A DNA stretch of 13,084 bases from an uncultured Saprospiraceae bacterium (GTDB taxonomy: Bacteria > Bacteroidota > Bacteroidia > Chitinophagales > Saprospiraceae), in contig CALIAG010000387.1 in assembly GCA_938041325.1 (NCBI GenBank), forward strand, positions 1-13,084. Reading direction: 5' to 3'. The stretch's first letter is position 1. Each line of letters begins with the position of its first letter. Position numbers and translations under genes: made by a program. The notes below the pieces were generated by a model. That model made no database searches, was not told the DNA's origin, and worked only from the letters and a program-made list of their open reading frames with translations. Shown here piece by piece: positions 125 through 13,084 of the stretch.

Positions 125-126
125 TA

Positions 127-1847: not shown

Positions 1848-2687
1848 ATGAAAACAATTACATTACCCGACGAATTAAATTTAAGTTCTTCTAAGTCTAT
1901 TGTGGTTTATGATTATAAAAGCATCACTGAAATATCGAAACAACAAATTTTATTAAATAAAAATACGTTTAGCTTTCTTCAAGAAGGAACTAAAGAAGTG
2001 TTTTTCGACAATTCTGCATATGCTATTGATAATTCTCAATTTCTATTAATGAAATCGGGGCATTGTTTAATGACAGAAAAACTCTCTAACGACTCAGAAA
2101 ACTATCGCAGTGTATTGTTTTTCTTTTCTGACGAAGAAATTTTTAGATTTTTACGAAAATTCAAATTAGAAACTTCTAATTCTAAAAAACTGTACTCAAC
2201 ATATTCGTTCAATTATGATTCATTCATCGAAAGATTTGTCGAAAGCCTTTTAGATATTTCAAAACTTTCTAAGCCAATGCAAGAAAACATTTTGAAAACA
2301 AAACTCGAGGAAATAATGCTTTACCTCACAGACTTAAAAGGGTTAGACTTTATTTATTCCTTGATTAACAATAGTGATAATCAAAATCAAAAGTTCATCC
2401 AAACAATTGAAAGCAACAGATTAAATAAACTCACAATAAAAGAGCTTTCATTTTTATCCAATATGAGTGTATCGACTTTCAAGAGAGAATTTGAGAAAAA
2501 ATTTCATAGTTCACCTAGTAAGTGGTTTCAAGATAAAAGACTAGAACATTCAGCTTTTCTGCTAAAAAACGAGTCAAAAAGACCTTCAGATATTTTTGAA
2601 GAAATTGGATATGAAAACTTATCGAATTTTATTCAAGCTTTTAAATCAAAATTCGGAGTCACTCCAAAACAATACCAATCAAGTTGA
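1848..2687 (+). CDS. AraC/XylS-family transcriptional regulator (279 aa)
   Basis: The C-terminal ~100 aa carry the classic AraC-type double HTH (LTIKELSFLSNMSVSTFKREFEKKFHSSPSKWFQDKRLEHSAFLL ... IGYENLSNFIQAFKSKFGVTPKQYQ). The N-terminal domain is a ligand-binding-like region. Confidence 0.85.
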   Translation: MKTITLPDELNLSSSKSIVVYDYKSITEISKQQILLNKNTFSFLQEGTKEVFFDNSAYAIDNSQFLLMKSGHCLMTEKLSNDSENYRSVLFFFSDEEIFRFLRKFKLETSNSKKLYSTYSFNYDSFIERFVESLLDISKLSKPMQENILKTKLEEIMLYLTDLKGLDFIYSLINNSDNQNQKFIQTIESNRLNKLTIKELSFLSNMSVSTFKREFEKKFHSSPSKWFQDKRLEHSAFLLKNESKRPSDIFEEIGYENLSNFIQAFKSKFGVTPKQYQSS

Positions 2688-2781
2688 ACTTTTGTCAATA
2701 CTTTTTGAACTTTTCTGATTAACACAAAACCTGAATTGCTCTCTAGATTTGCATTATAAATTAATAATTAAAACAAATATT

Positions 2782-3339
2782 ATGACAAAATCATTTCAAA
2801 TCTTAACAGTATTAATTGCTTTATCAACCTCAGTTTTCGGACAAAATACATTTACTTTATCAAGTAATGACTTAGGTGGACAAGCTACAATTAACGAAGA
2901 ATTCAACGGCTTTGGATGTACTGGCGAAAATCAATCCCCACAGTTATCTTGGAAAAATGCTCCAGTAGGTACCAAAAGTTTTGCTATAACAATGTACGAC
3001 CCTGATGCGCCTACGGGCAGCGGATGGTGGCACTGGGTTGTATTTGATATCCCAGCAAGCACGAATGAGTTCGTATCTGGAGCTGGAAATACGGAACTAA
3101 ATCTAACACCTGAAGGTGTTATACAAAGTATTACAGATTATGGAGCAAATGGTTATGGTGGACCTTGCCCTCCAGAAGGACACGGTTTACACCAATATAT
3201 AATTACAGTTTACGCTCTTAAAACAGATAAACTTGGATTAAATGAAAGTACAAATCCTGCCGTAGTTGGATATTACCTATGGAATAACACATTGGCTAAG
3301 GCGAGTATTGTGACTTATTATCAAAGAAGCAAGAAATAA
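2782..3339 (+). CDS. Secreted YbhB/YbcL-type PEBP family protein (phosphatidylethanolamine-binding / Raf-kinase-inhibitor-like), about 185 aa from the ATG
   Basis: PEBP signature YDPDAPTGSGWWHWVVFDIP and PCPPEGHGLHQY (the YDPDAP..HW and GxHxY motifs). The ORF-track start at 2749 is a TTG codon. The ATG at 2782 gives a clean signal peptide, MTKSFQILTVLIALSTSVFGQ. The stop is at 3337-3339. Confidence 0.85.
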   Translation: MTKSFQILTVLIALSTSVFGQNTFTLSSNDLGGQATINEEFNGFGCTGENQSPQLSWKNAPVGTKSFAITMYDPDAPTGSGWWHWVVFDIPASTNEFVSGAGNTELNLTPEGVIQSITDYGANGYGGPCPPEGHGLHQYIITVYALKTDKLGLNESTNPAVVGYYLWNNTLAKASIVTYYQRSKK

Positions 3340-3404
3340 AAACTGTCTCTAATAAGGGTAACCGTTGCACAAGCCCCTTAATCGGCAAAATGATGGATTG
3401 ACAC

Positions 3405-3427
3405 AAGCCTCGTAAAGAGGCTTTTTC
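3405..3427 (+). terminator. Rho-independent terminator downstream of the PEBP gene
   Basis: Hairpin aagcctc-gtaaa-gaggctt (7-bp stem) followed by ttttcc, 66 nt after the stop codon. Confidence 0.6.
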
Positions 3428-3656
3428 CTTATTGAATCAGGGTTGGAAGTGAAGATGAAGGCTTCCCTGTTTGATAGATGTCCAAATCGACCACCGACCT
3501 CAAATGCCTGTAAAATTGTTCTTGGGAACCCTGAACAAAAGCTGCTAACATCCAGGATGACAATTAATTTCACAGATTATATCACTAAATAAAGGGAAAA
3601 AATGTTTAGTTTAAAATAATTTATAAGCAATCCCAAAAATTGAAACCATAAGAATA

Positions 3657-4283
3657 ATGAACAATGAAGCGCAACATTCAAATGATATAGGTCTTGATAA
3701 ATTGATTTCAAAAGCTAAAAACAATTCAGCTAAAGACATGTATGACACCAAAAAAGAACCAAGAAAATCAATGGGAGTCTATTTGAAAAATCAAAATAGA
3801 CTCATAATGAATTCAATTGCGATCGCAGATAAAAAAGCAGCAATTTTGATTAGAATAAACACTGCAATAATATCTGCTTTAATTGTATTTGAAAGTTACT
3901 TTGAAAATACATCTTTTAATAATCAAATTATACCAATACTAATTATTGGGCTTTCTATTTCATTGATTTTTGCCATTCTCGCAGCAAAACCTTTCAGCTA
4001 TATTATGTATAAAGTTTTTAATAAAATCATCAAAAAGAAATATCCAAATTTAGAAGAAAATAACTTCATGATTTTTGAAGTACCAGAATTTGAGAAGTAC
4101 GAATTATCAATGCAAAAGGTTTTAAAGAGTCAAAACTTACAAATTGGTAACCTTACTAGATTTAATTATTTTATGAGCAAAAGCATCTCTAGGAATTACT
4201 TACAACTAGAAATTGCTTACACTGTTTTTTTAATTACATTCTTAATAGTTGCTGTTTTCTATATAAGTTCAAACTACTTTTAG
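3657..4283 (+). CDS. Hypothetical membrane protein with three predicted TM helices (208 aa); function unknown
   Basis: ATG start. The hydrophilic N-terminus of about 60 aa is followed by two adjacent hydrophobic helices (AAILIRINTAIISALIVF; IIPILIIGLSISLIFAILAA) and a third at the C-terminus (AYTVFLITFLIVAVFYI). No recognizable catalytic motif. Confidence 0.6.
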   Translation: MNNEAQHSNDIGLDKLISKAKNNSAKDMYDTKKEPRKSMGVYLKNQNRLIMNSIAIADKKAAILIRINTAIISALIVFESYFENTSFNNQIIPILIIGLSISLIFAILAAKPFSYIMYKVFNKIIKKKYPNLEENNFMIFEVPEFEKYELSMQKVLKSQNLQIGNLTRFNYFMSKSISRNYLQLEIAYTVFLITFLIVAVFYISSNYF

Positions 4284-4387
4284 CAAGCAACAAGCGGCAA
4301 AACATTTGTTGTGAACTGTAATTAAGATGGTGGAACCGACCCACCAAAGTCGTTTTATAGGAGAAGGTGTTAAACCACCTAAAGGAC

Positions 4388-4530
4388 ACTTCGGAGTAGC
4401 TTTGGACAAAAAAAGAAAAAACAAAACAATAAGCCTTAGCTTCGTGCGCAGACCTGCCTTGCCGGCAGGCAGGCGGAAACAAAAAAGTTTCCTTGCCTCC
4501 ACACTGCGCTTAGCCGAACTGTTAGGTGAC
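4388..4530 (+). repeat. Copy 2 of the ~143-bp structured repeat family, same orientation as copy 1
   Basis: Aligns with 345-487. The near-perfect palindrome cctgccttgccggcaggcagg at 4453-4473 is followed by GGAAAC-aaaaaa-GTTTCC. The closing helix GCGCAG (4445-4450) / CTGCGC (4507-4512) is shifted by a few nt relative to copy 1. It ends 12 nt before the ATG at 4543. Confidence 0.75.
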
Positions 4531-4542
4531 AAATTAATCAAT

Positions 4543-4920
4543 ATGAAAGTTACTGCCGAAAAAAATGAAAAAGTTGCCAATATGATATTTGCATCCATTT
4601 ATCCACTTTACCTGAATAGATTGGAGAAAAATGAAAGAACAAAAGAAGAACTCGATCAAGTAATTAAATGGTTCACTGGTTTTGATCAAGATGCCTTACA
4701 GGCTCTTATTGATGAAAAAGCAACCTTTAGAACATTTTTTCAAAAAGCTAAAATAAATCCAAACGCACACTTGATCAAAGGAGTCGTTTGTGGTTATCGT
4801 ATTGAAGAAATAGCGGATGAATTTGAATTGTATAAACAATGCAGACGTATGGAAAAGCTGATCGATGAATTGGCAAGAGGTCGTAAAATGGAGAAAATTT
4901 TGCGTGAAGAAAAAAAGTAG
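4543..4920 (+). CDS. DUF2200-family protein (125 aa)
   Basis: The ORF-track frame 4327-4920 is taken from the ATG at 4543. The upstream 72 codons lie over the repeat element and read as low-complexity K/R-rich text. The product MKVTAEKNEKVANMIFASIYPLYLNRLEKNERTKEELDQVIKWFTGFD...GVVCGYRIEEIADE...LIDELARGRKMEKILRE matches my recollection of the conserved DUF2200 family (family assignment is from memory). Confidence 0.65.
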   Translation: MKVTAEKNEKVANMIFASIYPLYLNRLEKNERTKEELDQVIKWFTGFDQDALQALIDEKATFRTFFQKAKINPNAHLIKGVVCGYRIEEIADEFELYKQCRRMEKLIDELARGRKMEKILREEKK

Positions 4921-5054
4921 AAACCGGTGCTAACAAAACCTCAATTGGATTAAAGCACAGTTTAACCGAAACGTTGGCATTCCAACACAACGGGTCCAAA
5001 TCGTATCCTGTGCAATAGAGAAAAATTTTACTGCCTCTGAGTGCAAATCCTTAG

Positions 5055-5077
5055 TATATTTGCGTATCATATACGCA
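5055..5077 (+). promoter_or_regulatory. Bacteroidetes-type -7 promoter box (TAtaTTTG, 5055-5062) overlapping a perfect palindrome TGCGTAT-cat-ATACGCA (5061-5077), immediately upstream of the nrtR-like gene
   Basis: TAnnTTTG matches the established Bacteroidetes sigma-A -7 consensus. The 7+3+7 palindrome spans the predicted TSS about 5 nt upstream of the ATG at 5082. This is a candidate (auto)repressor operator. Confidence 0.45.
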
Positions 5078-5081
5078 TATA

Positions 5082-5756
5082 ATGAAAAATACCATTCAAC
5101 TTACTGTAGATGCCGTCGTGTTTGGATACGAGTCGGGAAATATTTCCGTGCTACTAGTGAAACGTAAATACGAACCATATAAAAACGCATGGGCATTGCC
5201 AGGAGGCTTTGTGCTAGAAAATGAAAATCTTGAACAAGCCGTGGAAAGAGAGCTCTCTGAAGAAACCGGTGTAAAGATCAACTATCTCGAACAGTTGTAT
5301 ACGTTTGGTGATGTAGCACGTGATCCTAGGGGCAGGGTCGTATCGATAGCCTATTTTGGGTTGGTTAAACCAAATGCGTTTAAACTGCATGCATCGACCG
5401 ATGCCCAGAAGGCCGAGTGGTTCAATATCGCTCAACTACCAAAACTGGCCTTTGACCATAAAAAGATTGTACAAATTGCCATTGAAAGGCTTCAGGGAAA
5501 GATTACCTATGAACCTATTGGCTTTGAATTACTAGATAAAAGGTTTCCTTTTTCCGATTTAGAGAAATTGTATACAACCTTGTTGGGCAGGGAAATAGAT
5601 CGGCGAAATTTCAAAAAGAAAATTACAAGTCTAAAGGTATTAGACGAATTAGACGAGAAGGTTTCTAAAGGGCGAGGCAGGCCTGGCAGTCTTTTTAGCT
5701 TCAATCAAAAGCGTTATTTCCAACTTAAGAAAGCGGGAATCATCTTCGAAATATAA
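5082..5756 (+). CDS. nrtR: NrtR-like Nudix-related transcriptional regulator (N-terminal Nudix fold plus C-terminal winged helix), 224 aa
   Basis: Nudix box GGFVLENENLEQAVERELSEETGV (the GX5EX7REUXEEXGU pattern). The C-terminal ~80 aa are basic and wHTH-like (KKKITSLKVLDELDEKVSKGRGRPGSLFSF). It is positioned directly upstream of nadV-prs, as in described NrtR regulons (established knowledge). Confidence 0.75.
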   Translation: MKNTIQLTVDAVVFGYESGNISVLLVKRKYEPYKNAWALPGGFVLENENLEQAVERELSEETGVKINYLEQLYTFGDVARDPRGRVVSIAYFGLVKPNAFKLHASTDAQKAEWFNIAQLPKLAFDHKKIVQIAIERLQGKITYEPIGFELLDKRFPFSDLEKLYTTLLGREIDRRNFKKKITSLKVLDELDEKVSKGRGRPGSLFSFNQKRYFQLKKAGIIFEI

Positions 5757-5796
5757 CCCTTTTTAGTCGTGTCAAAATTTAATTTGCGTAAAAAAA

Positions 5797-5855
5797 ACAC
5801 AAAATAGGTTGTGTGTTGAAAAAGCGCATATTATATTTGTGTCATAATTACACAA
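5797..5855 (+). promoter_or_regulatory. Candidate promoter and operators of the NAD-salvage operon: -7 box TAtaTTTG (5832-5839) overlapping inverted repeat TTGTGT-N7-ACACAA (5837-5855); a second everted ACACAA-N8-TTGTGT site lies at 5797-5816
   Basis: Palindromes seen directly. They are placed in the 221-bp gap between the nrtR-like gene and the nadV-like gene. TAnnTTTG is the Bacteroidetes -7 consensus. Confidence 0.45.
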
Positions 5856-5977
5856 ATAAATGATATTTGAAAGAGAGACTAAATGTGGGAATTGAATTTT
5901 AAATATTACGAGATTAATAGCGTTATGTTTCAATATTAGAGGCCCATATTTCCAATAATAAATAAAAATCGAAAATT

Positions 5978-7432
5978 ATGAACGGATTACTACTCACCGA
6001 TGGATATAAGACCGGACACCACCAGCAATACCCAAAAGGAACAGAAGAAGTATATTCTAACTGGACACCTAGAAGTAACAAATACGCACCAAAAGGCTGT
6101 GACAAAGTACTTTCCTTTGGACAACAATATGTGATGCAGTGGTTGCATGATTATTTTGAGGATAATTTCTTTTCAAAACCAAAAGCATCCGTTTGCGATG
6201 AAATAAAAACCGAATTATCATTATACCTTAATGCGGACTATGATGTGACACATTTCGAAGATTTGCATGACCTGGGTTATTTGCCCATTCGAGTGAAGTC
6301 TCTAGACGAAGGGGTCGAGGTTCCCATTCGCGTGCCGATGCTAACGGTAGTAAACACCGATCCTAAATTTTACTGGGTCACCAATTTTCTTGAAACTATA
6401 TTATCGACCATGTTGTGGTTGCCCATGACCTCGGCTTCCATTGCATTGACCTATAAACGTATTTTCAAAAGATGGGCCTTAAAAACAGATGCCGAAAATA
6501 TAGCTTTTATTGATTTTCAAGGGCACGATTTTTCAATGAGGGGCATGGGTGGTCTTCAAAGTGCAGTAGCTTCGGGCATGGGTCATGCGGCCGTATTTTT
6601 AGGATCCGATACGTTGCCGGTGATTCACGGACTTCGAAAGTATTATGAAGCGGAAGGCTTTGTAGTTGGATCTGTGAACGCTACCGAGCACTCCGTAATG
6701 TGTGCTGGCACCAAAGATGATGAAATAGGTACGTTTCGACAGTTGATGAAAACCTACCCCACGGGAATTTTATCTGTAGTGAGTGATACCTGGGATTTAT
6801 GGAAAGTGCTAACGGAGTACCTTCCAACATTAAAAGAAGAAGTATTGGCCCGCGATGGTAAACTGGTGATACGCCCCGATAGCGGTGACCCTGTTGATAT
6901 TATCTGTGGAACAAATACTCAAATGAGTAAGGGCACTCCGGTTGAAAAAGGAGTTGTCGAATTACTTTGGGATGTTTTTGGGGGAACAACGAACAAGGAG
7001 GGCTTTAAAGTATTAGACCCACATATTGGAGCTATTTATGGTGACAGTATCACCACAACACGTGCTGCGGATATTTGTCAACGATTGCATGACAAAGGTT
7101 TTGCCACAACCAATGTGGTATTGGGTATTGGTTCGTTTACCTATCAATTTAATACCAGGGATACCTTCGGGTTTGCTATGAAAGCTACTTCGGTAGTAGT
7201 TGACGGCGCGCGCAGGGAAATTTTCAAAGACCCTATTACAGATGACGGCGTAAAAAAATCTGCAAAAGGATTAATTCGGGTCGATAAAGTAGATGGCGAT
7301 TATGTGTTGGTTGATGAAGTAACGGAAGCAGAAGAACAAAATGGGGAATTAAAGGTGATTTTCGAAGACGGCAAGTTCGTACATAAAACCGCTATAGAAG
7401 AAATTAGGGCTCGAATAAACGAACGGGTTTAG
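5978..7432 (+). CDS. nadV: Nicotinamide phosphoribosyltransferase family protein (NadV/Nampt; possibly the Namat-type NAD-reconstitution enzyme), 484 aa
   Basis: The N-terminus LLLTDGYKTGHHQQYP and the overall length are typical of NadV/NAMPT. It is followed by a prs homolog as in nadV-prs operons. Confidence 0.9.
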   Translation: MNGLLLTDGYKTGHHQQYPKGTEEVYSNWTPRSNKYAPKGCDKVLSFGQQYVMQWLHDYFEDNFFSKPKASVCDEIKTELSLYLNADYDVTHFEDLHDLGYLPIRVKSLDEGVEVPIRVPMLTVVNTDPKFYWVTNFLETILSTMLWLPMTSASIALTYKRIFKRWALKTDAENIAFIDFQGHDFSMRGMGGLQSAVASGMGHAAVFLGSDTLPVIHGLRKYYEAEGFVVGSVNATEHSVMCAGTKDDEIGTFRQLMKTYPTGILSVVSDTWDLWKVLTEYLPTLKEEVLARDGKLVIRPDSGDPVDIICGTNTQMSKGTPVEKGVVELLWDVFGGTTNKEGFKVLDPHIGAIYGDSITTTRAADICQRLHDKGFATTNVVLGIGSFTYQFNTRDTFGFAMKATSVVVDGARREIFKDPITDDGVKKSAKGLIRVDKVDGDYVLVDEVTEAEEQNGELKVIFEDGKFVHKTAIEEIRARINERV

Positions 7433-7454
7433 TGTAGCATTTAAAATTTTCAAT

Positions 7455-8213
7455 ATGAAATACGAAATAAAAAAATTTAGGGACGGACAGGTAGCTGCAA
7501 AAATTTTGGAAGAAGGCGATCTTGAAGTCCGCATTCGCGGGAATAGTTATGAAGACCTGTTTGCCATCGCAGCTATAAAGGACGCCTGGGATGCTGAGCA
7601 TAGTATGAACAAGACGGCTACGGCACGTTTAACGATATATTGCCTTATAGGGCAGCGATCCGATAGGCGTTTTAATGCAAAAGAATCTTTTGACTTAAAA
7701 GTGATAGCAAACTTCATTAATTCGATGGGTTTTGATAAGGTAGAAATTCTACATCCGCATAGTCCCATCTCCTTGGCTTTGATAGAAAACTCTAGTAAGT
7801 TATCCCATTTTCAATACGTTCAAAAAACCTTTGAAGCTATTGGAAACCCTGTTTTGGTAAGTCCGGATGCCGGGGCTTACAAAACCACCCATGAAATCGC
7901 TGAAAAGTTGGGAGCTGATTTGGTCCCCTCAAATAAAGTTAGGGTCGATGGCGCACCACAAATAAGTATTCAGGGAGATGTAAAGGATAAAGATTGTTTG
8001 ATTGTTGATGACTTGGCAGATGGGGGTCGAACCTTCAAGTTTTTGGCAGCAGCCTTAAAAGAACAAGGCGCGACAAGGGTGTATTTGTATGTGACGCATG
8101 CCCAATTCAATTATGGTTTTGATGAGTTGAAAGAGACCATTGACCATGTGTATTGCACCAATAGTTACAAGGATATTGATGATGAATTTGTGACGCAATA
8201 TAAAATTGTATAA
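7455..8213 (+). CDS. prs: Short ribose-phosphate pyrophosphokinase (Prs) homolog (possibly Adps-like), 252 aa
   Basis: Aligns to Prs along its length: FRDGQVAAKILEEGDLEV vs Prs FSDGEVSVQINENVRG; VLVSPDAGAYKTTHEIAEKLG vs [20 protein letters not shown]; the PRPP-binding loop DCLIVDDLADGGRTFKFLAAALKEQGATRVYLYVTHAQF vs [39 protein letters not shown]. It lacks about 25 N-terminal residues relative to canonical Prs. Confidence 0.85.
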   Translation: MKYEIKKFRDGQVAAKILEEGDLEVRIRGNSYEDLFAIAAIKDAWDAEHSMNKTATARLTIYCLIGQRSDRRFNAKESFDLKVIANFINSMGFDKVEILHPHSPISLALIENSSKLSHFQYVQKTFEAIGNPVLVSPDAGAYKTTHEIAEKLGADLVPSNKVRVDGAPQISIQGDVKDKDCLIVDDLADGGRTFKFLAAALKEQGATRVYLYVTHAQFNYGFDELKETIDHVYCTNSYKDIDDEFVTQYKIV

Positions 8214-8334
8214 AGTTAGTAAGGTGCCAGAAGAACTTGTTGTGAGTGATGGGGATGGTGTAAGTTTCCGGATACGACGTATCACAAGTTCAAAGTTTGG
8301 AAGAATTGATTGCCGATCTTAAAAAGAAAATGAG

Positions 8335-8889
8335 ATGAAATATTCACTGGAATTGGTCAAACAACAATTTGATTCGAATGAAAATATGAAATTCTTGTTC
8401 TTCTGGGGACATACCCCTGCCAAGGACGGTTCGGTGACCAAAAGCTGTTTCAGTCAATGGTGGAAAGCATCTTTTAGTAAAGAAGGTGAAACCTACAAAA
8501 CTGCAGAACATTTTATGATGGCCGAAAAGGCGCGTTTGTTTCAAGCTTTGGAAATAAGAGATGAAATTATAGCCTGTGAACATCCCGCAGCAGCTAAAAA
8601 ATTAGGGCGCAAGGTGAAAGGTTTTGATGCTGATATTTGGGACGAACATAAGTACGCCATCGTAAAAGAAGCAAATATGCTAAAGTTTTCGCAGCATGAC
8701 GCTTTAAAAGACTTTTTAGTAAACACAGGAAGTAGAATTCTGGTCGAGGCCAGTCCGGTAGATAACATCTGGGGGATTGGTTTGGCGCAAGACGACCCAA
8801 AGGCCCAAAACCCTCATCTATGGCAAGGTGAAAACTTACTTGGTTTTGCGTTGATGGAAGTTCGTGATCAATTAATTAAGAATCTATGA
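8335..8889 (+). CDS. NADAR-domain protein (YbiA/DUF1768 family, NAD and ADP-ribose related), 184 aa
   Basis: Family hallmarks: FLFFWGH..SQW, AEHFMMAEKARLF, LGRKVKGFD..W, ILVEASPVDNIWGIGL. The stop overlaps the next start (ATGA at 8886-8889). Confidence 0.85.
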   Translation: MKYSLELVKQQFDSNENMKFLFFWGHTPAKDGSVTKSCFSQWWKASFSKEGETYKTAEHFMMAEKARLFQALEIRDEIIACEHPAAAKKLGRKVKGFDADIWDEHKYAIVKEANMLKFSQHDALKDFLVNTGSRILVEASPVDNIWGIGLAQDDPKAQNPHLWQGENLLGFALMEVRDQLIKNL

Positions 8890-9422
8890 AAAAATATGCG
8901 GCGCTCTTCGGAGGTTCTGGAAACGATACGAATTCCAAAGAGTATCTTGAAACAGTTGAAATAGGTTCTTTTTTGACCAAACAAGGTTATATAGTAAAGA
9001 ACGGTGGATATGGCGGCATGATGGAAGCAGTTTCAAAAGGAACGACCGAATCCGGTGGCAGCGCAATTGGAGTTACATGCAAACAAGTGGGTCCTGCCGA
9101 GGGAAACCAGTATTTATCAGAGACGATAGTTACTGAGAAATTGTATGACAGACTCAAATTGTTGATCGAAAACACTACGGTTTTTATTGTACAGCGAGGT
9201 GGCATTGGAACACTTTCCGAGGTTTTTTTGGCTTTGGATATTATTCGGAAAGAGCCCAAATTATGGCAGCCTAAATTATATTTTGTGGGATACATTTGGA
9301 ATGATGTAGTGGCTTCTTTGAAAGCAACTTTAATTCCGGAGTACGAGCATGATTTATTTCAAATCGTAAAAGATTCCGAAGAACTATATCAACGAATATG
9401 TATAGATTTTCCTAAAAACTAA
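8886..9422 (+). CDS. LOG-family (TIGR00730, lonely-guy-type) Rossmann-fold nucleotide N-glycosidase-like protein, 178 aa
   Basis: Motifs GGYGGMMEA (GGGxGxMxA) and RGGIGTLSE (PGGxGTxxE) characteristic of LOG/SLOG proteins. Translationally coupled to the NADAR gene. Confidence 0.85.
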   Translation: MKKYAALFGGSGNDTNSKEYLETVEIGSFLTKQGYIVKNGGYGGMMEAVSKGTTESGGSAIGVTCKQVGPAEGNQYLSETIVTEKLYDRLKLLIENTTVFIVQRGGIGTLSEVFLALDIIRKEPKLWQPKLYFVGYIWNDVVASLKATLIPEYEHDLFQIVKDSEELYQRICIDFPKN

Positions 9423-9424
9423 AA

Positions 9425-9450
9425 AATGCGCTAGCTTTCACCAGCGCATT
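9425..9450 (-). terminator. Hairpin terminator between convergent genes; U-tract on the minus strand, so primarily terminating the SPFH gene
   Basis: aatgcgct-agctttcacc-agcgcatt (8-bp stem) preceded on the plus strand by aaaaaa (i.e. followed by UUUUUU on the minus strand). The SPFH stop is at 9458. Confidence 0.6.
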
Positions 9451-9457
9451 CACAAAT

Positions 9458-10558
9458 CTATTTATTGACGGAGAAAATCTCCTTCAATTGTTTTACCATA
9501 CCCCCGTTTCCAGAGACGGTAATCTCGCCGATTTTCTCGGCGATCTTCTCCACGTATTCCATTTCCTTCAGTTTGAAGAGCATTTCGTTGTCTTCCATCA
9601 GTTTTGCGGTGTTCAGCAAGCTTCTGGTAGACGCCGTTTCTTCACGTCGGGTAATGATATTCGCTTGGGCTCTCTTCTGAGCCACCAAAACTTGGTTCAT
9701 GATATCCTTCATTTCACCGGTTAGGATCACGTCACGAATACCGCAACTCAAAACTGCAACACCCAATTGGGTGGCCGCTGTCTTGATATCACCGAACACA
9801 GCTTCCGCGATGCTTTCTTTTCGCTCTAGAAGTTCATCTAGCGTATAGGTGCCGATATACGCACGCAATACCAACTGCATTGCAATGTACAACTGCTTCT
9901 CGTAGTCTTTGCTACCCAGCAAAGCCTTTTCGATATCGATAACCTTATACTGCGTATAGAAGTTGATACGAATGGCGGCCTTGTCTTTGGTCAGCAGTTC
10001 TTGACCAGAAATCTCCAATTGCAATTGACGCATATCCGCCTTGGCAATTTTGATAGGGATGTCATTTTTCCAGAAATGGTAGGTACCACTTTCCAGCGTT
10101 TTGACATAAACATCATCGACCAAAAGGACTGCTTTTTCATATGCCGCAACTTCCAAAACACGAACGTAAGTACGCAATTGTGCATGGCTCAACATCGCTT
10201 TGCCAATAGCCTCGGTGATATAGATCTTACTCAAATCGGCCATCACGAACTTGTAGTTCATCAAACCTTTCCAGAAGGCGTATTTACCGGCTGTAAGTAC
10301 TTGCTTCAAGTTTCCGTTTTCGGAAACCAAAGCCAGTTCAGCATCTTTTACTTCGATGATATGCAACATAGCATCCAAGCCTTGGTCCTGTAGCAAGATT
10401 TCTAATGCTATAGGAGCAACAAAGGCTTTGGTAAGGTCATAAACCTTAACCATATTTCTAAAGCCTACCCAATGCGTACCTTGGGTAATCACTTTTTGGT
10501 AGTCGCCTCTTTTAAAGACCAAACCTACTTTTCCTGCATTGATTCTTACTCTTTTCAT
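9458..10558 (-). CDS. SPFH/band-7 (stomatin/prohibitin/flotillin-like) domain protein, 366 aa
   Basis: SPFH-like core (LTKDKAAIRINFYTQYKVID, LRAYIGTYTLDELL) followed by the A/E/R-rich coiled segment typical of the family (QKRAQANIITRREETASTRS). Convergent with the NAD-salvage operon. Confidence 0.8.
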   Translation of the reverse strand: MKRVRINAGKVGLVFKRGDYQKVITQGTHWVGFRNMVKVYDLTKAFVAPIALEILLQDQGLDAMLHIIEVKDAELALVSENGNLKQVLTAGKYAFWKGLMNYKFVMADLSKIYITEAIGKAMLSHAQLRTYVRVLEVAAYEKAVLLVDDVYVKTLESGTYHFWKNDIPIKIAKADMRQLQLEISGQELLTKDKAAIRINFYTQYKVIDIEKALLGSKDYEKQLYIAMQLVLRAYIGTYTLDELLERKESIAEAVFGDIKTAATQLGVAVLSCGIRDVILTGEMKDIMNQVLVAQKRAQANIITRREETASTRSLLNTAKLMEDNEMLFKLKEMEYVEKIAEKIGEITVSGNGGMVKQLKEIFSVNK

Positions 10559-10890
10559 TACTTAAAATTTGTGTCCGCCAGTCTGCTGACGGACGAACGG
10601 GTTAAACTATTATCATGTATTACTATTTATTTCATTTTTTAAAAACAGTAGGTGCATATCATCTTTCTGATACGGAAATACTGGTTTTTGATACTGCTTG
10701 CAATTCGTTTTGTAGCATGCTTCCAATTGTGTTATTGATAAAATATTCATCAATTCTCCAGAAAGAAGGATGACCAAAAAGGGTTTTGCCTTTCGCATCA
10801 AAAAATCACCATTTCAAAGTAGCTTCATGATTGTCTTTGCTTCCCTTAGGAAACAATTACCGATTTACAGCTACTGCTTTTTGTCATTTT

Positions 10891-10905
10891 AAGCCCAACG
10901 GGCTT
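10891..10905. other. Small perfect hairpin aagccc-aac-gggctt at the proximal edge of the tRNA region
   Basis: 6-bp stem seen directly. It is flanked by short T-runs on the plus strand, but there is no clear U-tract in the minus-strand (tRNA) direction. Confidence 0.3.
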
Positions 10906-10936
10906 GGAGATCAGTTTTAAAAGATGATCGGCTTTA

Positions 10937-10981
10937 GGCTACATTATGAGTGTAGTGCTCTACCAACTGAGCTAAAGGGCC
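10937..10981 (-). pseudogene. Orphan 5' fragment of a tRNA with anticodon CAT (Met/Ile2-type): acceptor, D-arm and anticodon arm only
   Basis: Minus strand reads GGCCCTT-TA-GCTC-AGTTGGTA-GAGC-A-CTACA-CTCATAA-TGTAG-CC, then continues TAAAGCCGATCATC with no T-arm. Confidence 0.7.
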
Positions 10982-10989
10982 TAAAAAAG

Positions 10990-11055
10990 TGGCCTCTTGC
11001 AGGAGTCGAACCTGCGCGTCCTTCTGTTGTTCTAACCTAACTGAACTACAATCCC
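10990..11055 (-). pseudogene. Chimeric/degenerate tRNA remnant: 5' acceptor and D-arm of one tRNA (GGGATTG...) joined to a T-arm/acceptor of another; the anticodon arm is missing
   Basis: Minus strand: GGGATTG-TA-GTTC-AGTTAGGTTA-GAAC-A, then ACAGAAGGACGC, then GCAGG-TTCGACT-CCTGC-AAGAGGCC-A. The 3' acceptor strand cannot pair with the 5' strand. Confidence 0.55.
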
Positions 11056-11061
11056 ATTTGG

Positions 11062-11087
11062 GACTGATGGGATTCGAACCCATGACT
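11062..11087 (-). pseudogene. Orphan tRNA 3' fragment (T-arm plus acceptor: ATGGG-TTCGAAT-CCCAT-CAGTCCC-A); possible att-site remnant
   Basis: A canonical T-loop GTTCGAATC with the 3' acceptor strand but no upstream cloverleaf. Its acceptor (CAGTCCC) would pair with the GGGATTG 5' fragment that follows 3 nt later, suggesting tandem copies that are each partly deleted. Confidence 0.55.
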
Positions 11088-11089
11088 CA

Positions 11090-11400
11090 CAGAGTGGTGA
11101 TTGTTTTTTGGAAAACAATCGAAACCATCAAGTCAAGTTGTACATGAAGACAGTATACCTCTCGGCAAAACTCCATACAATAGTGCCCTACAGAAACACC
11201 CAACAAGACCCGCTTGATATCTTTATTCCCGCAAAGGCGGGAATCTCTATTTTAATGAACTTTTGTAAAAGCCTCACAACACTCCTTGTTGTTATGAGGC
11301 ACTACCACAAACTATGTTTTCACAAGCTTGTTTTTAATTACATGACAAAACTGAAACAGTACTACGCAATTATTATGCGTAGTTAAAATTTCTTTTGTTT
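11090..11400. other. About 310-bp noncoding, hairpin-rich segment of unknown function between tRNA-Arg and the tRNA fragments
   Basis: Hairpins: gattgtttt-ccaa-aaaacaatc (11090-11112, 9-bp stem); ttcccgc-aaag-gcgggaa (11226-11243); cctcacaaca..tgttgttatgagg (11271-11300, bulged); actacgca-attattat-gcgtagt (11361-11383, 8-bp stem followed by tttcttttgttttt on the plus strand). The only ORF (11108-11386, plus strand) has no RBS and atypical composition. Confidence 0.4.
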
Positions 11401-11404
11401 TTAG

Positions 11405-11477
11405 TAGGAGTAGCAAGACTCGAACTCGCATTTCTAGGTTCGTAGCCCAGCGTTCTATCCAATTGAACTATACTCCT
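11405..11477 (-). tRNA. tRNA-Arg (anticodon ACG), 73 nt, canonical
   Basis: Minus strand AGGAGTA-TA-GTTC-AATTGGATA-GAAC-G-CTGGG-CTACGAA-CCTAG-AAAT-GCGAG-TTCGAGT-CTTGC-TACTCCT-A. All four stems pair. Confidence 0.9.
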
Positions 11478-11478
11478 A

Positions 11479-11555
11479 TGGTGGAACAGACAGGACTCGA
11501 ACCTGTATCGTCGAATCTTCAATCCGCCGCATTGACCATCTTTGCTACTGTTCCC
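11479..11555 (-). tRNA. tRNA-Phe (anticodon GAA)-like with an encoded CCA and an extra 5' G; the D and anticodon stems each carry one mismatch
   Basis: Minus strand (G)GGAACAG-TA-GCAA-AGATGGTCA-ATGC-G-GCGGA-TTGAAGA-TTCGA-CGAT-ACAGG-TTCGAGT-CCTGT-CTGTTCC-A-CCA. Only 1 nt separates it from tRNA-Arg. Confidence 0.7.
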
Positions 11556-11558
11556 TCT

Positions 11559-11634
11559 TGGGGTGTACTCCGGGACTTGAACCCTGTTCCTCCCATTCAC
11601 AGCGGGGCGCTTTACCAGATAAGCTAGAGACACC
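11559..11634 (-). tRNA. tRNA-His (anticodon GTG)-like with G-1:C73 and an encoded CCA, but mismatches in the lower acceptor stem and the T-stem (possibly degenerate)
   Basis: Minus strand G(-1)-GTGTCTC-TA-GCTT-ATCTGGTA-AAGC-G-CCCCG-CTGTGAA-TGGGA-GGAA-CAGGG-TTCAAGT-CCCGG-AGTACAC-C-CCA. Mismatches at C5/T68, C7/A66 and A50/G64. The D-arm is perfect and G-1:C73 is the established His identity element. Confidence 0.6.
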
Positions 11635-11646
11635 ATTTTAGAGATT

Positions 11647-11795
11647 TTTTTGAAAGGTGTCGATTATTTTTCTACGTCCCTTTTTGCGCCCCACGTTGTT
11701 AAAATTTTCTAGCGTAGCTATGGCTATGCTGGAAAATTTTGCCTAGTTGCGCACCAAAAGTGAACTGTACAAATTCTAATCACACCTTTCAAAAC
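11647..11795. mobile_element. MITE-like ~150-bp element bounded by ~19-bp terminal inverted repeats (ttttgaaaggtgtcgatt ... aatcacacctttcaaaa), inserted between tRNA-His and tRNA-Gln
   Basis: Left arm 11647-11666 and right arm 11776-11795 are reverse complements (18/19 with a 1-nt indel). The interior is AT-rich with no ORF. It is the only large spacer in an otherwise tightly packed array. Confidence 0.45.
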
Positions 11796-11803
11796 AGTCT
11801 CTG

Positions 11804-11875
11804 TAAACCCGAAAGGATTTGAACCTTTACAACAAGAATCAAAATCTTGTATGCTAACCGTTACATCACGGGTCT
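11804..11875 (-). tRNA. tRNA-Gln (anticodon TTG), 72 nt
   Basis: Minus strand AGACCCG-TG-ATGT-AACGGTTA-GCAT-A-CAAGA-TTTTGAT-TCTTG-TTGT-AAAGG-TTCAAAT-CCTTT-CGGGTTT-A. Confidence 0.85.
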
Positions 11876-11900
11876 ATTTGCAAGCCTAACAAGATTTGAA

Positions 11901-11920
11901 CCTGCCTGCCGGCAGGCAGG
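11901..11920. repeat. Perfect 20-bp palindrome CCTGCCTGCC/GGCAGGCAGG, the same hairpin as in repeat copies 1 and 2, sitting inside a 130-bp non-tRNA spacer (11881-12010)
   Basis: acctgcctgccggcaggcagg is near-identical to 4452-4473 and related to 413-433. The neighbouring hairpin ttattt-c-aaataa is at 11965-11977. Confidence 0.6.
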
Positions 11921-12031
11921 CTCATATCTCAGGGTTAGAAATGCTTTTCTGCATTCACGAACTCCTTATTTCAAATAAAATGAGCATGAGCTAAATCCTG
12001 CGTGCTATCCATTACACCATAAGCTTAATTG

Positions 12032-12148
12032 TACCCCACCCAAGATTCGAACTTGGACTTGAAGGATTTTAAGTCCAGAACTTCGTTCGGTGCCTTCGCA
12101 GAAACTGTGTTTCTGCTCGTCAATCTCTGCCAGTTGGGCTAGTGGGGC
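12032..12148 (-). ncRNA. 117-nt tRNA-like element: perfect tRNA 5' and 3' ends (7-bp acceptor, canonical T-arm) enclosing about 45 extra nt that form three hairpins; possibly an interrupted tRNA or a novel tRNA-like RNA
   Basis: Minus strand GCCCCAC-TA-GCCCAACTGGCAGAGATTGACGA-[GCAGAAAC-aca-GTTTCTGC]-GAAGGCA-[CCGAAC-gaa-GTTCtGG]-ACTTAAAATCCTTCAAGT-CCAAG-TTCGAAT-CTTGG-GTGGGGT-A. The acceptor is GCCCCAC/GTGGGGT. The segment CTGGA-CTTAAAA-TCCTT resembles a weak anticodon arm (TAA). Confidence 0.5.
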
Positions 12149-12153
12149 ATTTG

Positions 12154-12226
12154 TACAGGGAGAGAGATTCAAACTCTCAGAGTACTGGTTCTAAGCCAGC
12201 TGCGTTTGCCATTTCGCCATCCCTGC
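12154..12226 (-). tRNA. Noncanonical tRNA with Leu anticodon TAG but a class-I (short variable arm) structure and A73
   Basis: Minus strand GCAGGGA-TG-GCG-AAATGGCAAA-CGC-A-GCTGG-CTTAGAA-CCAGT-ACTCT-GAGAG-TTTGAAT-CTCTC-TCCCTGT-A. All stems pair. The variable region is 5 nt, whereas bacterial tRNA-Leu normally has a long variable arm. Confidence 0.65.
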
Positions 12227-12230
12227 ATTG

Positions 12231-12303
12231 CTGAGGCATTAGGATTCGAACCTAAAACTTCCGTGTTAACAGCACGGTACTCTACCTATTGAGTTATACC
12301 TCA
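12231..12303 (-). tRNA. tRNA-Asn (anticodon GTT), 73 nt, canonical
   Basis: Minus strand TGAGGTA-TA-ACTC-AATAGGTA-GAGT-A-CCGTG-CTGTTAA-CACGG-AAGTT-TTAGG-TTCGAAT-CCTAA-TGCCTCA-G. Confidence 0.9.
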
Positions 12304-12308
12304 CTTTG

Positions 12309-12380
12309 TACTCTGTAGGGGAATCGAACCCCTATTTCCTGATAGAAAGTCAGGCGTACTAACCGTTATACGAACAGAGC
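12309..12380 (-). tRNA. tRNA-Glu (anticodon TTC), 72 nt
   Basis: Minus strand GCTCTGT-TC-GTAT-AACGGTTA-GTAC-G-CCTGA-CTTTCTA-TCAGG-AAAT-AGGGG-TTCGATT-CCCCT-ACAGAGT-A. Confidence 0.9.
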
Positions 12381-12384
12381 AAAT

Positions 12385-12483
12385 GTCTGAGAAGCAAGAT
12401 TGACTTCGTCTTTCTTGCAACTACTCCTTGTTAATCAAATTCGAGTAAACTTGATTTGATTAAGTCGTCTGAGAAGCAAGATT
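12385..12483. repeat. 17-bp direct repeat gtctgagaagcaagatt (12385-12401 and 12467-12483); the second copy is the 3' end of tRNA-Pro, the first an orphan copy 82 bp away (att-like duplication)
   Basis: The exact 17-mer occurs twice. The spacer between them contains the inverted repeat aatcaaat...atttgatt (12434-12461). Confidence 0.65.
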
Positions 12484-12539
12484 CGAACTTGCGACCTTCC
12501 GCGTCCAAGGCGGGTAAACAACCACCGTTATCTTCCCAG
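12468..12539 (-). tRNA. tRNA-Pro (anticodon TGG) with a C1-G72 start (as in E. coli tRNA-Pro) but G8 and an irregular D-arm
   Basis: Minus strand CTGGGAA-GA-TAAC-GGTGGTTG-TTTA-CCCGC-CTTGGAC-GCGGA-AGGTC-GCAAG-TTCGAAT-CTTGC-TTCTCAG-A. The anticodon loop is CTTGGAC. The T-arm and acceptor pair, but the D-stem is weak. Confidence 0.65.
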
Positions 12540-12544
12540 TTTTG

Positions 12545-12617
12545 CAGTACCGACGGGACTCGAACCCGTACCTTCCCGATAGACAGTCGGGCGCTCTAGC
12601 CTTTGAACTACGGTACT
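12545..12617 (-). tRNA. tRNA-Asp (anticodon GTC), 73 nt
   Basis: Minus strand AGTACCG-TA-GTTC-AAAGGCTA-GAGC-G-CCCGA-CTGTCTA-TCGGG-AAGGT-ACGGG-TTCGAGT-CCCGT-CGGTACT-G. Confidence 0.9.
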
Positions 12618-12620
12618 TTG

Positions 12621-12703
12621 TGGAAGTAGTAGGACTTGAACCTACATGTCATTTCTGAACCTGATTTACAGTCAGGCGAGCCAGCCAATTGCTCAATACT
12701 TCC
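12621..12703 (-). tRNA. tRNA-Tyr (anticodon GTA), 83 nt, class II with a long variable arm
   Basis: Minus strand GGAAGTA-TT-GAGC-AATTGGCTG-GCTC-G-CCTGA-CTGTAAA-TCAGG-TTCAGAAATGACAT-GTAGG-TTCAAGT-CCTAC-TACTTCC-A. Confidence 0.9.
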
Positions 12704-12711
12704 ATAATTTT

Positions 12712-12787
12712 TGGAGACAAGGATGAGATTCGAACTCATAAAAAACGGATTTGCAGTCCGCTACCTTAACCATTCAGCCACCTTGTC
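12712..12787 (-). tRNA. tRNA-Cys (anticodon GCA) with an encoded CCA; the D-stem is imperfect
   Basis: Minus strand GACAAGG-TG-GCTG-AATGGTTA-AGGT-A-GCGGA-CTGCAAA-TCCGT-TTTTT-ATGAG-TTCGAAT-CTCAT-CCTTGTC-T-CCA. The anticodon arm is identical in pattern to E. coli tRNA-Cys. Confidence 0.8.
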
Positions 12788-12795
12788 CATTTTTG

Positions 12796-12882
12796 CGGAG
12801 GGCAAAGGAATTGAACCTTCACTACCTTATGGTAGACTCGCTTAGCAGGCGAGCGCAACAAACCAGTATTTGCCTACCCTCC
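12796..12882 (-). tRNA. tRNA-Ser (anticodon GCT), 87 nt, class II
   Basis: Minus strand GGAGGGT-AG-GCAA-ATACTGGTTTG-TTGC-G-CTCGC-CTGCTAA-GCGAG-TCTACCATAAGGTAGT-GAAGG-TTCAATT-CCTTT-GCCCTCC-G. The variable-arm hairpin is CTACC-ata-GGTAG. Confidence 0.9.
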
Positions 12883-13053
12883 AATTGCTTCAGCCGTGGG
12901 AGTCTCAATTTCCCAGACTGGCAGAGAACCTGCATGTGCGGTTATCCGCTAAAACCTTTATTCATATTTTAATTATTCGCCTGCCCGGCTCGGGCCAAGA
13001 GTGTGGCCAGCGCCCTTTGGCTTGCTCTTCCTTTTTTCAATAAATAATGCGCA

Positions 13054-13084
13054 TAAAAAAAGCATCTCGTTATCGGAGATGCTT
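13054..13084 (-). terminator. Strong Rho-independent terminator on the minus strand at the window edge (terminates a minus-strand gene lying beyond position 13084)
   Basis: aagcatctc-gttatcg-gagatgctt (9-bp stem) followed in the minus-strand direction by TTTTTTTAT. Confidence 0.7.

Follow-up and report, generated by a model that had tools for sequence, protein, structure and literature searches.

The presence of many tRNA genes within one short stretch of a bacterial genome raises the question of whether the cluster is the main housekeeping tRNA locus of the organism or a spare set, and, if it is a spare set, what role it plays. This question is considered here for an array of twelve tRNA genes in a stretch of 13,084 nucleotides (nt) from an uncultured Saprospiraceae bacterium (GenBank assembly GCA_938041325.1, contig CALIAG010000387.1, positions 1 to 13,084 of the forward strand). 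This whole stretch is referred to below as the window, and coordinates are those of the window unless the locus of a relative is named. An earlier note on this DNA, made from the sequence alone, had likened the array to those reported on mobile elements and in a minority of bacterial genomes. We conclude that it is most likely a supernumerary, spare set of tRNA genes, similar in kind to the L-array of Anabaena (Santamaria-Gomez et al. 2021, PMC8421152), and not the main housekeeping tRNA locus. The array lies on the minus strand upstream of a gene for a slipin (an SPFH/Band 7 protein; 9458-10558, minus strand; Pfam PF01145), which is the conserved anchor of the locus. The corresponding loci of relatives, labelled L001 onward, were collected by fetching contigs via slipin homologues and by scanning one genome per species (80 loci).

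Organization of the tRNA Gene Array

At its default settings ARAGORN identified 11 tRNA genes between positions 11404 and 12882, all on the minus strand, as are the other features of the array and of the leader that follows it. From the upstream end these are the genes for a class II tRNA-Ser(GCT) (12795-12882; Rfam 38.8 bits), tRNA-Cys(GCA) with U73 (12712-12787; 63.2 bits), a class II tRNA-Tyr(GTA) (12620-12703; 56.1 bits), tRNA-Asp(GTC) (12544-12617; 61.7 bits), tRNA-Glu(TTC) (12308-12380; 61.3 bits), tRNA-Asn(GTT) (12230-12303), tRNA-Leu(TAG) (12153-12226), tRNA-Gln(TTG) (11803-11875; 62.4 bits), tRNA-His(GTG) with G-1 and C73 (11559-11634; 32.8 bits), tRNA-Phe(GAA) with an unusual D arm (GCAAAGATGGTCAATGC; 11479-11554; 62.6 bits) and, as the last gene of the array, tRNA-Arg(ACG) (11404-11477; 63.0 bits). 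The twelfth gene, for a tRNA-Pro(TGG) with an odd D arm and A37 (12467-12539), gave a weak Rfam match spanning 12470-12537 (29.8 bits, the gathering score being 29) and was also called by ARAGORN at a relaxed threshold (-ps95), while its orthologues in relatives (L001 and others) were called at default settings. ARAGORN and Rfam together thus confirm the head-to-tail order Ser-Cys-Tyr-Asp-Pro-Glu-Asn-Leu(TAG)-Gln-His-Phe-Arg that the earlier note had given. Nine of the genes score between 56 and 67 bits against the Rfam tRNA model (E ~1e-10 to 1e-13).

The genes are packed at a density of 12 in 1.48 kb (~8 per kb). In a cloverleaf parse, eight of the spacers, counted from the discriminator base of one gene to position +1 of the next, were found to be 8, 11, 3, 5, 5, 4, 7, and 4 nt long, in accord with the short spacers noted earlier, and the three long gaps (87, 278, and 170 nt) contain inserts or pseudogenes. 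The same parse bore out two further statements of the earlier note, namely that CCA is encoded only on Cys, His and Phe, and that the stems of His, Phe, Pro, and Cys carry mismatches: four in His (5-68, 7-66, 27-43, and 50-64), one in the D stem of Cys, and two each in Pro and Phe (27-43 and 13-22). Encoded CCA was rejected as a meaningful trait of the array. Because each of the three cases differs by a single base from the sequences of the closest relatives in our alignment, they are regarded as single-base accidents without any signal.

Three disrupted tRNA genes were identified in the gaps and upstream of the array; these had been missed in the earlier note, as had the unusual features of Leu(TAG), which is 74 nt long and carries a C56->T change, and a structured element downstream of the array. 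The tRNA-Ser(TGA) pseudogene (~12884-13030) was recognized by alignment to the intact Ser(TGA) genes of L006, L007, and L010. Its 5' 35 nt are intact, but both the anticodon loop and the T loop contain insertions and the 3' acceptor strand is no longer paired, and this derived form is also found in L015, L001, L009, L011, and L020. In the tRNA-Leu(TAA) pseudogene (12032-12148), ~47 nt are inserted at the junction of the D stem and the anticodon stem in comparison with the intact 75-nt gene of relatives, and L011 has the same lesion. The tRNA-Arg(TCT) pseudogene (11881-12026), identified by alignment to relatives, contains two insertions that are described below. In addition, a degenerate duplicate of the 3' part of the Pro gene (12386-12466; ~80 nt) is made up of a hairpin, a T stem whose loop is enlarged and a second copy of the 3' acceptor strand, and shows 77-99% identity to counterparts in L015, L009, L007, L045, L042, and L062. 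The array therefore comprises 12 tRNA genes, or 15 with the pseudogenes; a Trp gene that is present in the arrays of some relatives is absent.

A terminator-like hairpin with a T-run (13060-13084) closes the unit upstream of the array and is kept in all close relatives. Between it and the first tRNA-derived sequence lies a putative promoter region (..TTATTTATTGAAAAAAGG.., 13031-13052), which was recognized by its conservation in an alignment of the window with five close relatives (the flanks of the nearest ones being 89-96% identical) and which loosely resembles the Bacteroidetes -7 motif TAnnTTTG. The array tRNAs probably form one transcription unit that starts from this promoter, just upstream of the first tRNA-derived gene. 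A scan for sigma-70 promoters, whose consensus is unsuited to Bacteroidetes, gave a background-level result (6 found vs. 4.6 expected). A hairpin that follows the last tRNA gene (11361-11383), also conserved in relatives, is a possible terminator or processing site. Among the large or structured RNAs that were looked for (GOLLD, ROOL, group I and II introns, transfer-messenger RNA (tmRNA), and T-box), none gave a match at the Rfam gathering score in the window, L001, L003, or L004, where tRNA was the only family found; the tmRNA and permuted-tmRNA matches in the window are weak and partial, and involve the T arm.

Conservation of the Array at a Fixed Chromosomal Locus

The closest homologues of the slipin encoded in the window (92-96% identity) are from Maribacter, Zobellia, Flagellimonas, and uncultured Flavobacteriaceae, and across the Flavobacteriaceae its homologues are 75-96% identical. 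A total of 73 loci had at least 4 kb of sequence upstream of the slipin gene. In 59 of these a homologous, same-strand array of at least five tRNA genes (up to 19) was present at the same site, 10 others had one to four array genes and four had none, so that at least one array gene was found at the syntenic site in 69 of the 73. Both flanks, i.e., a gene for a TPR protein on one side and the slipin gene with its leader on the other, are syntenic in more than 20 genera. In relatives the array is held in a gene-free stretch upstream of the slipin gene, and the region beyond this gene, which ends at a gene for the regulator NrtR, is variable and contains SIR2-pAgo, AbiE, CBASS or Macro/KptA genes.

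Directly upstream of the array, the nearest relatives have rtcB, prfH, and the gene for the small TPR protein, the prfH assignment being based on a match to TIGR03072 (228.7 bits vs. a cutoff of 166.65). In Zobellia uliginosa (L015) the order of genes is WYL/WCX regulator, rtcB paralogue, unknown gene, rtcB, prfH, TPR gene, and array. An exact 45-nt search of metagenomes with the upstream edge of the window returned no match, and two proteins of the window had no exact counterpart in an assembly index.

The resemblance to mobile-element arrays proposed in the earlier note holds only in part: the array does appear to be an accessory, supernumerary one of the L-array kind, but a mobile carrier finds no support. 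A blastn search with the array against PLSDB gave one trivial match to a single tRNA, and in a search against phage genomes no match extended beyond one tRNA or two neighbouring ones (8% of the query at most). Neither the window nor the relatives with examined neighbourhoods showed an integrase, a duplicated attachment site or genes of phages. As judged from these comparisons, there is no sign of a carrier, and in more than 20 genera of Flavobacteriaceae the array occupies a fixed chromosomal position between the TPR gene and the core slipin gene.

Two other observations concern this locus. In L001 a conserved non-coding block of ~1.1 kb (5315-6423 of that locus) lies between the last array tRNA and the leader; it is also found in L006, L010, and partly in L007, is absent from the window and L015, contains T-arm-like and D-arm-like motifs and has no Rfam match at the gathering score. 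Further, Maribacter algarum RZ26 has two slipin copies (L005 and L008), each 96% identical to the window protein and located ~1-2 kb from a scaffold end, a pattern suggesting either a duplication of the locus or a tendency of short-read assemblies to break in the array region.

The Array as a Probable Supernumerary Set of tRNA Genes

If no other copies of these isoacceptors were present in the genome, the array would simply be its main tRNA locus, as the earlier note had pointed out. The results for three of the isoacceptors argue otherwise. In L009 and L020 the array Pro(TGG) coexists with a second, canonical and GC-rich Pro(TGG) gene, which is on the opposite strand ~13 kb and ~3 kb downstream, respectively, and L017 has only the canonical gene; the array and canonical sequences are unrelated. 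For Leu(TAA) and Arg(TCT), the array copies in the window are broken, and since UUA/UUG and AGA codons must still be read in this AT-rich genome (~40% GC), other Leu and Arg genes presumably exist elsewhere in it. Moreover, because the content of the array varies from 0 to 19 genes among relatives, it cannot be an essential set.

Unusual tRNAs of the Array and Evidence for Selection

The array genes do not have the appearance of neutral DNA. ARAGORN-recognized sequences were aligned for the 21 tRNA types that are represented by five or more distinct array sequences. Per type, compensatory changes were found in 3-18 of the 11-27 predicted pairs, with 96-100% of cells paired, and the consensus folds are largely cloverleaf-like. 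This evidence indicates that the array tRNAs are functional RNAs in many lineages, their cloverleaves having been preserved by compensatory change. Several of them depart from the usual form of their type.

One such departure is seen in the Leu tRNAs. Bacterial tRNA-Leu is a class II tRNA. In the arrays of this family, all 40 distinct Leu(TAG) sequences are 74-78 nt long and Leu(TAA) is 75 nt long, both without the long variable arm and both retaining a Leu-type D arm and A73; the Leu tRNAs of the phage arrays examined are mostly 81-89 nt. The T loop of the window Leu(TAG) reads TTTGAAT in place of TTCGAAT, and this C56->T change is unique among the 40 sequences. One defence system is known to cut the variable loop of a class II tRNA (PMC13096335), and it may be speculated that a defence of this type would explain the loss of the variable arm from the array Leu tRNAs.

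The Asn(GTT) gene of the window is, by orthology, the array Lys(TTT) gene of relatives, from which it differs by two changes, T34->G (U34->G in the tRNA) and A73->G at the discriminator position, both of which are shared with Z. uliginosa (L015). In Escherichia coli, G34 and G73 form the Asn identity set. Since the anticodon and the discriminator have changed together to give G34 and G73, the Lys-to-Asn change looks like a selected switch of tRNA identity. The mismatched His sequence with G-1 and C73 is nearly invariant in ~22 relatives, and a perfectly paired variant is found in other genera.

The D arm of the Phe tRNA (GTAGCAAAGWTGGTCAATGC) is also unusual. Its signature was found in 33 IMG/VR viral contigs, mostly within phage tRNA arrays, about two-thirds of them having 10-24 tRNA genes around the match; these contigs (L085-L117) include phage contigs of 200-400 kb with 20-24 tRNA genes. 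The array members other than Phe show little similarity to the phage tRNAs examined. In view of the limited blastn matches to phage genomes, a phage origin of the whole array was rejected, the Phe type being alone in having a clear counterpart in viral contigs. In the Pro tRNA, the C27-A43 mismatch is an extra one specific to the window genome, and the anticodon loop of the array copy has C32, A37, and C38 where the housekeeping copy of relatives has U32, G37, and A38. The differences in the loop fit the idea that spare tRNAs escape anticodon nucleases (PMC10264068).

Unusual anticodons were also observed at conserved positions of the relatives' arrays: a Tyr-like ATA at 11 loci, Ile TAT at four, Asp ATC and Phe AAA at two each and His ATG at one (e.g., L045 at 8953, L064 at 7948, and L084 at 9001 and 9074). 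One TTA anticodon, potentially that of an ochre suppressor, occurs in the array of Winogradskyella sp. R77965.

Insertions in the Arrays

The MITE-like insert (i.e., resembling a miniature inverted-repeat transposable element) of the earlier note was found to be a 168-nt element in the Gln-His spacer (11639-11806). It is a long imperfect palindrome, matching itself on the opposite strand with 74% identity over 163 nt. It is private to the window genome, being absent from all relatives, and no other copy was found in our data.

The two insertions in Arg(TCT) are of a different kind. The first (~53 nt; 11942-11994), in the anticodon loop, belongs to a family of which 26 copies of ~53-65 nt were found in 25 of 82 loci, all inside arrays (e.g., L007 8526-8603, L016 6486-6564, L040 8896-8970, and L120 483-561). 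Members have conserved ends and an internal covarying hairpin, and each terminates in CGTGAATGC-N3-6-GCAT immediately next to a palindromic TTCGAA or TTCTAA; they are mostly inverted in T loops and forward in Arg anticodon loops. With the intron option of ARAGORN (-i), the L007 and L040 copies are called as tRNA-Arg genes with introns of 52-54 nt, and the surrounding anticodon stems covary. However, the exons of a metagenome allele that carries the insert are identical to those of an intact allele, and the 26 copies occur in both orientations at TTCGAA sites. These observations disfavour an ancient intron, and we favour the interpretation that the family is a small site-specific mobile element. 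Nor does the insert fit a bacterial group I tRNA intron, a self-splicing ribozyme that lies in the anticodon loop, because of its length (~53 nt vs. ~200 nt or more) and the lack of any Rfam intron match. The second insertion, a GC-rich palindrome of 20 nt (GCCTGCCTGCCGGCAGGCAG; 11902-11921) in the T arm, was also found in array tRNA genes of three further species (L009 6875-6902 and 7783-7809, L017 8960-8984, and L023 8581-8603), and the first of the L009 copies has an ATGA^GTTC context identical to that in the window. The small elements situated at TTCGAA in tRNA loops may represent an undescribed kind of tRNA-gene parasite.

Tandem tRNA-like Modules in the Slipin Leader

The fragments that the earlier note had described as interspersed with the array do not represent debris; they form a tandem RNA element that is tRNA-like and shows covariation. 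This element is located in the non-coding leader between the array and the slipin start codon (10559-11330), which also contains several covarying hairpins. The ~770 nt from Arg(ACG) to the slipin start are ~80% identical to those of relatives, a degree of conservation equal to that of coding sequence.

The element consists of two circularly permuted modules. In module 1 (11023-11093), a closing helix strand, a variable-loop-like linker, a T arm and the 3' acceptor strand are followed by a short loop, the 5' acceptor strand, a D arm and the other closing helix strand; the acceptor-like hairpin has 7 bp. Module 2 (10939-11022) comprises a variable-loop-like linker, a T arm, an acceptor-like hairpin whose loop contains AC(C) and a run of T, and a D arm, together with an anticodon-like arm (CAT) that is complete, and a weak Rfam tRNA match (10929-10981) corresponds to its 3' part. 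In the CAT-type variants the second hairpin is a stem of 7-8 bp followed by ACC(A) and a T-run, an arrangement that corresponds to the 3' end of a tRNA linked to a 5' end.

In nhmmer searches 78 of the 84 sequences proved to contain the module pair, which invariably lies 400-650 nt upstream of the slipin gene and is also present at loci that have lost the array. Among 62 sequences, 27 of the 40 pairs predicted by RNAalifold show compensatory changes, and all twelve pairs of the two acceptor-like hairpins covary. With 60 distinct rows, 96.6% of cells are paired, as against 38-48% in controls in which the partners were slid by 1-3 columns, and double-change cells number 438 vs. 47-88. None of 500 shuffles reached the observed values on four of five measures; on the fifth, the number of further pair types, 34 of the 500 did so.

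Module 1 matches positions 20-89 of the Rfam YrlA model (34.9 bits, E = 5e-6 locally by cmscan), a score below the gathering threshold of 69, with model positions 1-19 and 90-114, which include the Ro60-binding stem, unmatched. No Ro60/TROVE gene was found within ~10 kb in L001-L004 (Pfam-annotated genes on both sides) or among the scanned open reading frames (ORFs) of the window, nor was one present among ORFs of at least 100 amino acids (aa) on the upstream side of L015. Because the Ro60-binding stem is unmatched and no TROVE gene was seen nearby, we describe the modules as YrlA-like in architecture and do not file them as members of the YrlA family. As regards features of permuted genes, the termini of module 1 lack any sequence for an anticodon loop, the break in module 2 falls at positions 43/44, and no bulge-helix-bulge motif was identified in either. 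The module 1 pattern matched only ordinary tRNA-Asn genes of phages in viral contigs. On this evidence the modules probably constitute a new, Ro60-independent class of tRNA-mimic RNA that is conserved across the family.

We attach very little probability to a bolder proposal, that Flavobacteriaceae mature interrupted and permuted tRNA-like genes by protein cutting and RtcB-dependent rejoining, in which the structured ~53-nt Arg inserts would be removable introns and the modules, with ACCA encoded in the acceptor loop, would give two-piece tRNA-like RNAs via RNase P and the CCA-adding enzyme, alongside RtcB and PrfH. If true, it would amount to enzymatic tRNA splicing or circularization in bacteria. 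Lastly, a nearly invariant hairpin-forming sequence (CCCGTTCGTCCGTCA..ACTGGCGGACACAAA; 10570-10600, minus strand) directly upstream of the slipin start codon in all aligned relatives may be a translational or stability element.

Proposed Role of the Array and Alternative Explanations

The explanation that we favour, with moderate confidence, is that of a supernumerary array of the L-array type, held at a fixed locus, with a back-up or decoy role under translation damage. Its most likely function would be that of a back-up pool of tRNAs. Transcription would start near the edge of the window, from a promoter directly following the terminator hairpin, and the primary transcript would be matured through RNase P cleavage, 3' trimming and CCA addition. 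The tRNAs, presumably aminoacylated, would serve as substitutes or as decoys once agents such as anticodon nucleases, ribotoxins or translation inhibitors have damaged the ribosome or the usual tRNA pool, and in the same response RNA repair and ribosome rescue would be provided by the neighbouring RtcB ligases and PrfH. The genes of the locus are in the order (WYL regulator)-rtcB-x-rtcB2-prfH-TPR gene-array-leader with the two mimics-slipin-variable defence/NAD island in the closest relatives.

Several of our results weigh against this explanation. The rtcB-prfH pair accompanies the array in only ~25 of 80 loci, and since the window ends ~200 nt upstream of the array, its linkage in the source genome is deduced from relatives. 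The covariation test of the array tRNAs is biased, as its alignments took in only those sequences that ARAGORN recognizes. In the window itself, the C56->T change in Leu(TAG) is probably harmful and four of 16 ancestral array genes are broken or lost, so this copy, which is partly decayed and still eroding, may be drifting toward loss.

The latter observations lead to the alternative that the array is a decaying relic, i.e., an old phage-derived or horizontally acquired cluster that was fixed at this site and is now neutral, eroded by insertions and without function here. The three pseudogenes, the degenerate Pro duplicate, the altered Leu(TAG), the low-scoring His, at least four independent insertions within 2 kb, the range of 0 to 19 genes among relatives and the disruptive T-loop-targeting elements in 25 of 82 loci are all as expected for a relic. 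However, neutral DNA would not retain compensatory pairing across genera whose slipins are only 75% identical, the coordinated switch of anticodon and discriminator argues for selection on tRNA identity, and eight or nine of the array genes score as normal tRNAs. We therefore regard a relic as unlikely.

It is improbable, in our view, that the array RNAs and the two mimics are mainly decoys or sponges for tRNA-targeting nucleases or tRNA-binding proteins and are not competent for translation. A sponge was raised as an idea for the Anabaena array (PMC8421152), and such a role would accommodate the Leu tRNAs without a variable arm, A37 of Pro, the conserved His with its mismatched acceptor and the adjoining conserved tRNA mimics, which are incapable of decoding. 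However, the identity elements that the array has kept (G-1 and C73 of His, U73 of Cys, A73 of Leu, and G73 with the Asn anticodon) are unexpected for pure decoys.

The possibility that the array is a housekeeping operon for these twelve amino acids has hardly any probability left. Dense same-strand tRNA operons are found in many bacteria, most array members score well and the site is conserved in the family; against this, the relatives' content ranges from 0 to 19 genes, a canonical Pro(TGG) lies elsewhere in relatives, the lesions in Leu(TAA) and Arg(TCT) would be lethal in sole copies, and the class-I-like Leu tRNAs are not the normal bacterial form. Equally, it is most unlikely that the array is cargo of an integrated prophage, integrative and conjugative element or other mobile element, since, despite the Phe type shared with phage arrays and the neighbouring variable island with defence genes in relatives, the TPR and slipin-leader flanks are syntenic in more than 20 genera, the window and the relatives examined show neither an integrase nor a duplicated attachment site nor any phage genes, and no plasmid was matched.

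Neighbouring Genes

The array borders a variable accessory/defence region, in agreement with the earlier statement that it sits next to accessory genes. On the other side of the slipin gene, the window encodes NrtR, a NAMPT-family enzyme, a Prs-like phosphoribosyltransferase (a short protein of 252 aa), a NADAR protein and a SLOG/LOG-like protein (5082-9422, plus strand). This cluster occupies the slot that SIR2-pAgo, CBASS or AbiE genes have in relatives, beside the same NrtR gene, and it may serve in the salvage or reconstitution of NAD+ in connection with an NAD-depleting defence; its pairing of NAMPT and Prs-like enzymes is reminiscent of the NARP1 pair of phages. Additionally, a 208-aa protein (3657-4283, plus strand) weakly resembles PycTM, the transmembrane domain of Pycsar effectors, with an E value (2.6e-4) that does not pass the cutoff. 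The best, though weak, NCBIfam matches of an ankyrin-repeat protein (534-1622, plus strand) are Legionella Dot/Icm ankyrin effectors, which is unusual for a free-living flavobacterium.

Significance and Comparison with Known Systems

The general kind of tRNA array described here is already known, but its details appear to be undescribed. In the literature that we searched, the coverage of which is incomplete, no description was found of a family-wide syntenic array in Flavobacteriaceae, a link between such an array and prfH, class-I-like Leu tRNAs, a Lys-to-Asn conversion, a tandem tRNA mimic without a nearby Ro60 gene, or loop-targeting insertion elements. Most of the spare arrays known so far are scattered curiosities gained by horizontal transfer, and the one that has been studied is that of Anabaena. 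The present array has one chromosomal address across a large marine family, by RNA- and ribosome-repair genes and a defence hot spot, and a fast turnover of content. The dozens of natural variants thus provide material for asking what such arrays are for. Its members also offer test cases for tRNA function, namely Leu tRNAs without the long variable arm, a Lys tRNA re-assigned to Asn by two changes and a conserved His tRNA with a mismatched acceptor. The permuted modules extend tRNA mimicry of the Y-RNA type to a setting where no Ro60 gene is found within ~10 kb.

Of the known systems, the L-array of Anabaena sp. PCC 7120 (the trn operon) is the most similar. It is silent under standard conditions, is induced together with rtcB by translational stress and aids survival, and the phyla listed as having L-arrays include the Bacteroidetes, an rtcB neighbourhood being noted for the cyanobacterial arrays (PMC8421152). 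The array in the window resembles it in its co-oriented genes with very short spacers (the largest gap being 278 nt), close enough for co-transcription, its probable supernumerary status, its pseudogenes, the RNA-repair genes (rtcB) nearby and a plausible role as a stress reserve. It is smaller, having 12 intact-looking genes (no more than 19 in any relative) vs. 26-43, and it differs in its class-I-like Leu tRNAs, its prfH partner and the tRNA-mimic modules downstream. Additionally, the arrays of the Flavobacteriaceae are chromosomal and syntenic across the family, in place of the patchy distribution expected from horizontal gene transfer, and a foreign origin is suggested only by the phage-type Phe. 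With the tRNA array units (Tran et al. 2016, PMC4758250; Mycobacterium, PMC5966550), the array shares an accessory character and a high density, well above 2 genes per kb, but it falls short of the 20 genes required of such units and was not found to be carried by a plasmid or a phage. The tRNA clusters of phages counter tRNA-targeting defences, altered anticodon loops allowing their tRNAs to evade anticodon nucleases (PMC10264068, PMC11555353); the Phe D arm is common to phage tRNA clusters and the array, and the anticodon loop of the array Pro is likewise unlike that of the host copy, whereas the array lies in a bacterial chromosome between core genes.

The RtcB2-PrfH module, which repairs ribosomes cut by colicin E3 (PMC9304027, PMC9223846), is represented by the same gene pair directly upstream of the array in the closest relatives; the pair is outside the window, and no report of its occurring together with a tRNA array came up in the literature that we searched. 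YrlA RNAs are reported to adjoin Ro60 genes, and the form in M. smegmatis, which has a 7-bp acceptor, is an RNase P substrate to which CCA is added (Chen et al. 2014, PMC4201824; RF02553). Module 1 of the slipin leader has in common with YrlA the closing helix, T arm, closed acceptor stem and D arm, the acceptor stem being of 7 bp as in M. smegmatis, and RtcB genes are present in the neighbourhood; it differs in being one of two tandem modules, the second with a full anticodon-like arm, in a slipin leader. Lastly, the modules share with permuted tRNA genes (Cyanidioschyzon merolae; PMC3978253) and two-piece tmRNA the succession of T arm, 3' acceptor strand, (ACCA), linker, 5' acceptor strand and D arm, but in those systems a mature tRNA or tmRNA arises through defined processing, whereas here module 1 is devoid of an anticodon loop and the break in module 2 separates the anticodon arm from the variable loop.

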